20,203 nt of DNA from a virus: UHGV virus genome UHGV-1356910, one strand, 5' to 3'. The stretch's first letter is position 1, and each line of letters opens with the position of its first letter. A program made the position numbers and the translations under genes. The notes beneath the pieces were generated by a model that ran no database searches, was not told the origin of the DNA, and worked only from the letters and a program-made list of their open reading frames with translations. Positions 3,250 through 4,063 of the stretch are shown piece after piece.

Positions 3250-3312
3250 TTAGCACGTAAAATCAGTAACGGCTGGAAATCATTCAATACTCGCACTATC
3301 GGAAGTTCACCA

Positions 3313-3350
3313 GCCAACCGCAGCACGTTCTTGCATACGACGTGCCTGCG
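3313..3350. repeat. Hairpin-containing direct repeat, copy 1 (CCAACCGCAGCACGTTCTTGC..GACGTGCcTGCGG)
   Basis: About 38 bp with an 11-bp inverted repeat (CCGCAGCACGT / ACGTGCTGCGG, one bulge in this copy). The second copy lies at 9451-9488 in the same orientation. Confidence 0.6.
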
Positions 3351-3477
3351 GTTTCAACTCCCGCCAGCCCACCAATCATGATTGGACGGTGCAAGGACAA
3401 CACCAACAAAAACAGGAAGTTAGAAGTCTCAGCAAGACACCGACCAGACGGTGAGGAGACATAAAAGGATACGCAAA

Positions 3478-3527
3478 GGAGCCGCGGCTCCTGGTGATAT
3501 GAAAGCCCACAGATGTGGGCTTTTTTC
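3478..3527 (+). terminator. Perfect 14-bp palindrome GGAGCCGCGGCTCC followed by a rho-independent terminator
   Basis: Palindrome at 3478-3491; GC stem GCCCAC/GTGGGC at 3505-3520 followed by TTTTTT at 3521-3526. Confidence 0.6.
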
Positions 3528-4063
3528 GTTTCATCTGCATAAATGGCTATACATCAGCCGCCACACACGGAGCAACAGCTTTTATTGCTTTCACAGTTTC
3601 TCTATACCTTACCTAGCATATATATCTTTATGTCATAACTAAAAGTTAGGTAACTCATTAATTTAGGTAGTACCGAAAATGGGAACGCCCCTACGATCTT
3701 CGCATTACGAATTATAAGAATCCGCTTCTAATTCAAAGTATTATCCCATCAACACTGCGCTCACACGTCCCACCACATCAAAACATGTAAAGCCTTGCAA
3801 GCCATTGTGAGGCCTTATGTGTCTCAGTTTTGTCCCACTACGACCTGCACAGAAAATAAGAAAATAGCGGTGATATCAAACAGTACAGAAGTCTTTTTTC
3901 TTTCAAATGGAGAAACTGATTAACCCGTTTAATTGTACTCCTCATGGGTAATGTTAAGGCACAGGAACAAAATCACTATTATGAATTTAATTTCACTATA
4001 GTAAATTTGATAACTCGTTTTGTATCTCAAGACACAAGCAACGACCACTTTAAGGGAGATAAC

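Follow-up and report, generated by a model that had tools for sequence, protein, structure and literature searches.

A non-coding zone beside the attP of a phiP27-like Escherichia coli phage as a probable stack of earlier attachment-site remains

Phage 21 and e14 bring with them a substitute for the 3′ part of icd that reaches well beyond the crossover, and the same pattern, in which the 3′ end of the target is replaced and displaced fragments are left, is reportedly described by Williams in 2003 ('Traffic at the tmRNA gene'). According to the Islander principle, elements that integrate in a tRNA or tmRNA gene supply this target with a new 3′ part, and the displaced fragments persist (PMC4383910). 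A case that involves the tmRNA gene ssrA is phage LLS, in which 29 bp are identical to the ssrA 3′ end and which is expected to integrate there (PMC12315714).

The locus considered here lies in a window of 20,203 nt (the whole stretch of DNA that was analysed), which matches complete E. coli genomes as two separate pieces. Positions 48-2738, with the excisionase and integrase genes, correspond to one end of a prophage of about 47 kb in EC9682, and positions 2716/2728-20203, with dinI, cargo and tail genes, correspond to the other end of the EC9682 prophage, adjoining yecD. As these two ends meet at 2716-2738, the attP junction of a phiP27-like yecE phage is contained in the window. At the DNA level, the integrase gene is 95% identical to phiP27 int/attL, and in EC9682 it overlaps a DUF72 (yecE) gene. 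Judged from these alignments, the source is a mosaic temperate E. coli phage, phiP27-like and integrating in yecE. The stretch under study, 3250-3940, is situated 0.5-1.2 kb to the cargo side of the current attP; in lambda-like phages, the equivalent zone separates attP from the tail-fibre genes. The features between the integrase gene and this stretch are as follows.

1396-2709: integrase gene, phiP27-like, the sole integrase in the window
about 2716-2738 (no strand): present attP core, yecE-type, where both EC9682 prophage ends meet
2942-2957 and 2970-2985, plus strand: two LexA (SOS) boxes 5′ of dinI, CTGT-N8-ACAG
3001-3249, plus strand: dinI-like gene (RecA filament binding protein DinI; phrog_189, E 5.6e-30; in RefSeq a DinI-like family protein)

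We consider it probable, at roughly 0.8, that 3250-3940 is a non-coding zone on the att side of the phage in which the remains of earlier attachment sites are stacked following swaps of integrase/att modules. The layers on which this reading is built, together with the second copy of a hairpin found elsewhere in the window, are listed below.

3256-3356, plus strand: lambdoid att-side segment, 97% identical to HK97, with a GC-rich hairpin at 3316-3353 and then TTT
3348-3374, plus strand: pseudo-fragment of the tmRNA gene (ssrA), its last 27-28 nt, comprising the T-arm and acceptor 3′ end, GCGGtTTCAACTCCCGCCAGC-CCACCA
3372-3385, plus strand: palindrome CCAATCATGATTGG in the ssrA trailer copy, lying across the CCA end
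3375-3530, plus strand: copy of the native ssrA 3′ trailer (ssrA-ypjA intergenic), 97.8% identity
3388-3404 and 3438-3453, plus strand: trailer hairpins
3478-3491, plus strand: palindrome/hairpin GGAGCCGCGGCTCC, folding at -10.3 kcal/mol
3501-3526, plus strand: predicted intrinsic terminator, GAAAGCCCACAGATGTGGGC and T6, with a 10-bp stem, -15.4 kcal/mol and z -4.5
3531-3645 (no strand): spacer common to the P′ arm of an ssrA-integrated lambdoid prophage (MS21324)
3646-3712, minus strand: decayed thrW-type attP, aligning to the annotated attP of HK542
3713-3905 (no strand): P′ arm of the thrW-type attP, 84% identical to A2 (locus L005, 6278-6541) at a prophage/host junction
3755-4064, plus strand: left edge and upstream region of an acetyltransferase / HTH-cupin / ompT / hydrolase cargo module
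9447-9490, minus strand: hairpin copy 2, directly 3′ of the stop codon of a tfa pseudogene (...NPVRE, stop), family D10

All the features named in the original prediction were found at the coordinates given for them, and they surpass chance. The absence of a credible open reading frame from 3250-3940, as stated in the original prediction, was confirmed, since only ORFs of 31-63 aa are present and none matches PHROG; a small-protein gene in the gap was rejected on the basis of the six ORFs of 35-63 aa, for which the PHROG search returned no family match. RefSeq annotates nothing in 3250-3940 in identical genomes, and the end of the gap has to be moved from 3940 to 4064 because the acetyltransferase gene starts at 4064/4065 in RefSeq rather than at the ATG at 3944. 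A tblastn search of 3250-4064 at E<=10 revealed no remnant of tfa or of integrases of the ssrA, thrW or lambda type, and promoter-like sites were absent from 3250-3500. ARAGORN detected neither tRNA nor tmRNA in the whole window. The Rfam search that had been proposed as a check was run on the whole window and gave 0 hits at the gathering scores, so that no family reaches threshold, and a permissive search of 3200-4000 yielded only sub-threshold matches, the meaningful one being to the CssrB hairpin; those to STnc350, snoRNAs and others were set aside as chance. At an identity of >=99.9% the entire 691-nt stretch is present in 14 of 5426 complete E. coli genomes, each time beside the same dinI prophage end. 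Upstream of dinI, the two LexA boxes belong to three matches to CTGT-N8-ACAG in the window, as compared to 0.37 expected.

The segment 3348-3374 is, by alignment, the core of an ssrA-type attachment site. It agrees with the last 28 nt of intact ssrA at 26/28 positions, the differences being one T-stem substitution and the loss of 1 nt from the acceptor strand, and the same acceptor deletion is found in the CP4-57 attR of K-12. A full tmRNA gene (about 363 nt, with the tag reading frame) is absent according to ARAGORN and Rfam, the last 27 nt alone being present. Core and trailer together (3348-3530, 183 nt) are 97.8% identical to the ssrA-ypjA region of FDAARGOS_1279 (L004, 3001-3183), the trailer identity being 97% for the K-12 CP4-57 attR, 92% for the ssrA-proximal copy in MS21324 and 88% for phage LLS, where the same ~180 bp is annotated as 'tmRNA pseudogene / attP'. 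Homology to the chromosome stops at the T-run of the terminator, 5 nt before the stop codon of ypjA. The 14-bp palindrome that had been noticed downstream of dinI is GGAGCCGCGGCTCC and is located exactly at 3478-3491, while the GC hairpin with T6 reported next to it is the top terminator-like site in 2700-4200; with its GC-rich stem, its T-run and the conservation of that stem, 3501-3526 is a predicted Rho-independent terminator. The proposal that palindrome and terminator are elements specific to a dinI 3′ UTR did not hold, however, as both are contained in the 97.8% copy of the ssrA 3′ end and trailer.

The distribution of these elements follows ssrA and attachment sites. Some part of the 691-nt query was found in 5145 of the 5426 complete E. 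coli genomes, and at the loci that were inspected the trailer part was always beside ssrA or at an island junction, never beside dinI. In E. albertii, E. ruysiae, E. whittamii and Pseudenterobacter timonensis the trailer is preceded by a tmRNA gene that is intact, and it is carried by 90 IMG/VR loci, the left junctions of which are many and different. The expectation that hairpins and palindrome are conserved was borne out in that they are kept, but not in their partner, as they travel with ssrA and att junctions and not with dinI. In addition, 3348-3905 is 92.3% identical to MS21324 (L001, 6001-6562), where the corresponding sequence is located right behind an intact ssrA gene and continues into the cargo and tail-fibre genes of a prophage. 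This MS21324 prophage has a trailer copy at each end, and its far end carries an LLS-type integrase together with the more diverged of the two copies. The MS21324 match, coupled with the ~180 bp shared with the LLS attP, establishes 3348-3905 as the phage-side arm of an ssrA-type attP. When compared to a functional ssrA attP, the arm is retained (3375-3905 at 92% to MS21324, the trailer at 88% to LLS). As to the core, homology starts only at GCGG, which leaves the left part of the LLS attP unrepresented; on the integrase side, the Int of the window is 27% identical to those of LLS/MS21324, and to the left of the core the sequence is of the HK97 kind.

The HK97-like sequence to the left of the core is the lambdoid segment 3256-3356, for which the counterpart in HK97 (locus L010, 2501-2601; 97% identity) follows the annotated sib site directly and is separated from the tfa stop by about 130 bp. 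Identities of 85% and 84% were obtained with HK542 and with the Qin prophage end in E. coli B, respectively, and in the latter the hairpin is followed by TTTTT. By eye, the sequence that precedes the hairpin at the Qin end of E. coli B looks like a dinI 3′ end. The hairpin repeat that had been described at 3313-3350 is real, with 3316-3353 folding at -20 kcal/mol (z -4.5), and its second copy is 91% identical (matched at 9447-9481) and folds at -27.4 kcal/mol on the minus strand; only about 40 nt is common to the two copies. The minus strands of both match the 3′ terminal hairpin of the Rfam family CssrB (RF02799), with scores of 24.3 bits for 3319-3390(-) and 32.6 bits for 9455-9517(-), where the gathering score is 76, and it is the 3′ hairpin alone, not the 180-nt model, that matches. 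Literature searches gave nothing useful on CssrB. On the strength of these matches the hairpin is a widespread terminator-like element that is not specific to the 3250-3940 locus, and it is probably a terminator, which we regard as putative, at the border between the int/dinI side and the tail-fibre operon.

Hairpin and ssrA core are fused at an 8-of-9 microhomology, GCGGTTTCA / GCGGGTTCA. Following the hairpin, HK97 reads GCGGTTTCATTT, ssrA reads GCGGGTTCAACT and the window reads GCGGTTTCAACT, and comparison of these three readings places the fusion inside the microhomology, which is also the end of the annotated LLS attP sequence, ...GCGGGTTCA. The same fusion of hairpin and ssrA was identified in about 12 of the 90 trailer-carrying viral-contig loci, with GGT or GGG at the junction and with junction positions that differ slightly (GCGGTTTCAAC vs GCGGGTTCAAC). 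The 0.6-2.8 kb upstream of the fusion in these 12 loci contained neither an ssrA-type integrase nor dinI, and the fusion is therefore not tied to dinI; the upstream sequence was found to comprise a leader that is conserved and cargo that varies, and two loci (L053 and L090) have a P4-like integrase or a fragment of one. The composite of hairpin, ssrA core and trailer occurs in unrelated prophage backbones, with lambda-like tails here and of the baseplate type in A2 and D217-5, and its recurrence across such backbones could hint at selection rather than pure hitch-hiking. We infer one or a few old recombination events that were followed by mosaic exchange. As a conjecture, the fusion may have originated from recombination between tandem elements at ssrA, or from the action of an integrase at a secondary site.

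Inside the phage-side arm of the ssrA-type attP there is another attachment site in a decayed state. Positions 3646-3667 are a remnant around an integrase stop codon, and 3668-3712 are the reverse complement of the 3′ half of the tRNA-Thr gene thrW with 37 of 46 positions kept; the alignment to the HK542 attP ('similar to thrW tRNA gene', L009, 2513-2574) opens a few bases short of the integrase stop. Prophages that occupy the thrW/yagP′ locus in strains A2 and D217-5 possess an intact copy of the 46-nt tRNA-Thr segment, and the arm downstream of it is the same. A thrW-type attP proper is recognised by identity over these 46 nt beside the integrase stop, and here only 37/46 positions agree and tblastn found no integrase remnant. 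The TTAGGTA direct repeat that had been recorded in this part is present, at 3646-3652 and 3663-3669, and is, from its position in the alignment, a by-product of the decayed thrW-type attP. The region 3650-3760 is 86-87% identical to the attP-int regions of SfII, SfV and SfI, and 3713-3905 is common to MS21324 also. From 3755 to 8300 the window is 99% identical to phages PhiR29_1 and PhiR29_2, and the same span is found at 99% in PhiR49_1, 2G7b, ev243 and Turner, split there into two pieces with a query coverage of about 35%. In PhiR29_1 the counterpart of position 3755 is 140 bp from the end of the record, beside the integrase of that phage.

An ssrA end with its own terminator and a decayed thrW site in the same zone lead us to regard it as an ordinary recombination scar and not a new RNA gene. 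Reading outwards from dinI, the proposed order comprises the lambdoid hairpin segment, the last 27 nt of ssrA, the trailer with its terminator, a further arm, the thrW attP with its arm and finally the edge of the ompT module, and successive swaps of integrase/att modules would leave att relics in such a series; the order and mechanism of the swaps are proposed here from the breakpoints alone. The 155-nt trailer is the arm with which lambdoid phages integrating at ssrA rebuild that gene, together with a terminator, upon integration. Having neither an integrase of its own nor an int-side arm, and with lesions in the core, each relic is presumably inert for integration at present, and transcriptional punctuation is probably the one activity left. 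The T-run of the hairpin at 3316-3353 was cut to TTT by the ssrA fusion, with the strong ssrA terminator about 150 nt later, and SOS-induced dinI transcripts would end at 3316-3353 and/or 3501-3526, before the cargo genes. Any such ending of dinI transcripts would probably be an incidental by-product of the scar. The 183 bp that is near-identical to the chromosome would be a possible substrate for homologous exchange, and gene conversion may explain why the trailer is nearer to the chromosomal allele (97.8%) than to the phage arms (88-92%).

The conservation of the trailer structures was assessed with an alignment of 40 distinct trailers, taken from viral contigs, LLS and one native locus, for which a five-helix structure was scored. 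With this model, 94% of the cells were paired, and 44 double-change cells were observed as compared to 14 in column shuffles (0/500 reaching the observed number) and <=4 in slid controls. Covarying pairs were detected in the helix at 3388-3404 (three), in the 14-bp palindrome (one, C-G to U-A) and in the terminator (one, G-C to A-U, a compensatory change seen in 14 of the 40 variants), while the middle helix, having served as the search pattern, is necessarily invariant. As the aligned trailers are related, the covariation constitutes support rather than proof, and it supports the trailer hairpins being conserved structures of the ssrA trailer and not of dinI. The 286-nt stretch as a whole folds better than shuffled sequences (z -3.2). 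Conservation of the trailer extends over Escherichia, Citrobacter and Pseudenterobacter and includes phage attP arms. In K-12 the trailer and terminator behind ssrA come from CP4-57 and are quite unlike the native ones; the native trailer is thus dispensable for tmRNA function, and a requirement for it in tmRNA maturation was set aside. No useful account of ssrA trailer function was found in the literature. We give little credence to the idea that the ~155-nt trailer is itself a functional module of structured RNA, acting as a processing or stability signal or as the source of a trailer-derived small RNA, in which case the SOS-inducible dinI promoter and the tmRNA 3′-end mimic would at this locus yield an RNA, made upon induction, that could compete for tmRNA-processing or SmpB-related factors. 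An RNA function of the ssrA trailer might nevertheless be the one thread that deserves further work.

The original prediction favoured a functional long and structured dinI 3′ UTR, or a 3′-UTR-derived or independent small RNA ending at about 3527. In its full form, this reading has the RNA made under SOS control and acting in trans. The structures are indeed on the strand of dinI, which has two LexA boxes, the presence of only TTT after the first hairpin makes read-through to 3501-3526 plausible, and both the compensatory changes in the trailer hairpins and the folding of the 286-nt stretch above shuffles are as such an RNA would have them. We nonetheless judge it improbable, as the conserved structures accompany ssrA and att junctions rather than dinI, the full stretch is confined to the 14 genomes with the same dinI prophage end, neither a promoter-like site in 3250-3500 nor an Rfam family at threshold was found, and the functioning of K-12 ssrA with a different trailer leaves the trailer with no demonstrated RNA function. 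The suggestion of a decayed end of a tail-fibre-assembly (tfa) gene stood in part, in that copy 2 of the hairpin comes immediately after the tfa pseudogene stop and is 91% identical to copy 1, thereby linking the hairpin to post-tfa sequence, and the homologous HK97 segment is about 130 bp from a tfa stop. Coding remnants are what it lacks: tblastn with HK97 Tfa was blank in 3250-4064 at E<=10 and gave a single match, at 9513-9707, and beyond the ~40 nt shared with copy 2 the other ~600 nt is accounted for by homology to ssrA, thrW and the cargo module. Taken over the whole region, this origin is largely refuted, and we attach almost no probability to it.

It is also conceivable, albeit very improbable in our estimation, that the ssrA-like element is still functional as a secondary att site, on which the LLS/MS21324-type integrase of a co-resident could act, resulting in recombination with ssrA or its prophages. 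The 26/28 core, the arm 3375-3905 kept at 92% to an integrated ssrA prophage, the fusion exactly at the end of the annotated LLS attP and the recurrence of that fusion with slightly shifted junctions are all in keeping with such activity. Against it, neither the int-side arm nor the left portion of the LLS core (GAATTACGGGC) is present, the single integrase of the window is 27% identical to ssrA-type integrases, and the core bears both the T-stem substitution and the acceptor-strand deletion. A different matter is how the ssrA piece was acquired, since it may have been captured straight from the chromosome by aberrant excision of an ssrA-integrated ancestor, as in specialised transduction; this is possible, though rather unlikely. 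The greater identity to the chromosomal ssrA-ypjA spacer than to the phage copies (97.8% vs 88-92%) and the end of chromosomal homology at the T-run, 5 nt before the ypjA stop, speak for capture, but right after the terminator the window follows the MS21324 phage arm (3531-3905, 92%) and not ypjA, and the free phage LLS has the same trailer, so that a phage-arm origin with gene conversion fits equally. As the window copy is nearer to the chromosomal allele than known phage arms are, the trailer could have come by either route, as a phage arm that was inherited and then altered by gene conversion, or straight from the host. Host capture would alter the history of the ssrA piece, not the identity of the feature.

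The interpretation of 3250-3940 as stacked attachment-site remains matters mainly for annotation and for reading phage history. A hairpin, a palindrome and a strong terminator here mimic an RNA gene when they are in fact a borrowed tmRNA gene end with its terminator, and the feature is not a tmRNA gene, a functional attP, a member of an Rfam family or a tfa remnant. The layered scars record at least three successive specificities (thrW, ssrA and yecE) in one phage lineage, and ssrA-integrating lambdoid phages are shown to bring along the entire trailer of their target with its terminator, beyond the 3′ end of the gene. The 183 bp at 98% identity to the chromosome within a phage lends itself readily to homologous exchange with the ssrA locus.

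Among the known systems, the attP of LLS and MS21324 is like the window element in possessing the last ~28 nt of ssrA followed by the ~155-nt trailer with an intrinsic terminator, and MS21324 also has the same downstream arm out to window position 3905, whereas the window element is devoid of the int-side arm, the left core and a cognate integrase, has two core lesions and resides in a phage that uses yecE. The K-12 CP4-57 attR beside ypjA and the native ssrA-ypjA spacer share 97-98% trailer identity with the window copy, which differs from them in being away from the ssrA locus and in being followed by phage DNA rather than ypjA. For the thrW layer, the counterparts are the thrW attP of P22/SfV/SfII/HK542-like phages and the ptwF pseudo-tRNA (CP4-6 end), in which the reverse complement of the tRNA-Thr 3′ half comes directly after the integrase stop and is followed by the same arm, but the window keeps only 37/46 core positions and the integrase gene is gone. 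The hairpin segment resembles the sib-tI region of lambda/HK97, being 97% identical to HK97 after sib; unlike that region, the window has dinI in place of sib and a T-run shortened by the ssrA fusion. The minus strands match the 3′ terminal hairpin of CssrB almost base for base, whereas the remainder of the 180-nt model is absent. With the icd replacement of phage 21 and e14 the principle is the same, although there the target is protein-coding and no sequence relationship exists. In principle, therefore, nothing new is encountered: the locus is an unannotated, three-layer instance (thrW, ssrA and the current yecE) of a well-known pattern.

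Short motifs, TGTCCCA and ATGCCCCA(AAA), recur at 2856-2917 and also at 2646-2666, as found by a repeat search of the window (family D7), and these repeats adjoin the present attP core on its cargo side. In the yecE-type attP, such motifs would be candidates for the arm-type sites at which integrase binds. Upstream of dinI lie two perfect LexA boxes of the form CTGT-N8-ACAG, at 2942-2957 and 2970-2985; this pattern occurs three times in the whole window, as against 0.37 matches expected. The decayed attP core of the thrW type is a 46-nt segment derived from tRNA-Thr (3668-3712), which carries 9 changes (20%) when compared with the intact sites of strain A2 (L005) and of locus L114, while the arm beside it diverges from those same sites by just a few percent. 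The substitutions relative to intact thrW-type sites are clustered in the core.

The window holds three further features, two of them partial Rfam matches:

9544-9641, minus strand: partial match to IS009 within the pseudogene for tail-fibre assembly (tfa); 47 bits, below the gathering score of 117.
9455-9517, minus strand: partial match to CssrB at the hairpin that follows the tfa pseudogene; 33 bits, below the gathering score of 76.
15239-15538 and 15882-16181: 300-nt direct repeat (family D1, from the repeat search), 99% identity, 643 nt apart, within the tail gene region.

In eight other viral loci (L016, L018, L025, L047, L053, L072, L076 and L090) the fusion of the hairpin to the end of ssrA is preceded by a conserved leader of approximately 110 nt (GGCACATAGCAG...GGAGGATCGGTGGGAGGAGG), located upstream of the hairpin. 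Beyond this leader the loci carry very variable cargo genes on the minus strand, several of them AAA-ATPase-like; two of the loci, L053 and L090, additionally have a P4-like integrase upstream of the fusion. The region upstream of the fusion in these eight loci has the appearance of a cargo or defence hotspot.

Additional to the elements named in the original prediction is a perfect 14-nt palindrome, CCAATCATGATTGG, at 3372-3385. It opens with the CCA that closes the tmRNA fragment and is almost without variation across the 40 aligned trailer variants.

Different elements each bring their own terminator to ssrA. In E. coli K-12 the sequence downstream of ssrA (L112, 2560-2700, minus strand) is the trailer of CP4-57 itself, which is unrelated to that of the window and supplies a terminator approximately 60 nt past the CCA end of tmRNA. 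The prophage residing in ssrA of E. coli MS21324 has a trailer copy of approximately 180 bp on either side (L001, 6001-6183; L007, 37958-38131); the two copies are not identical to each other, match the window at 92% and 88% identity, respectively, and are much longer than the usual att core repeat.
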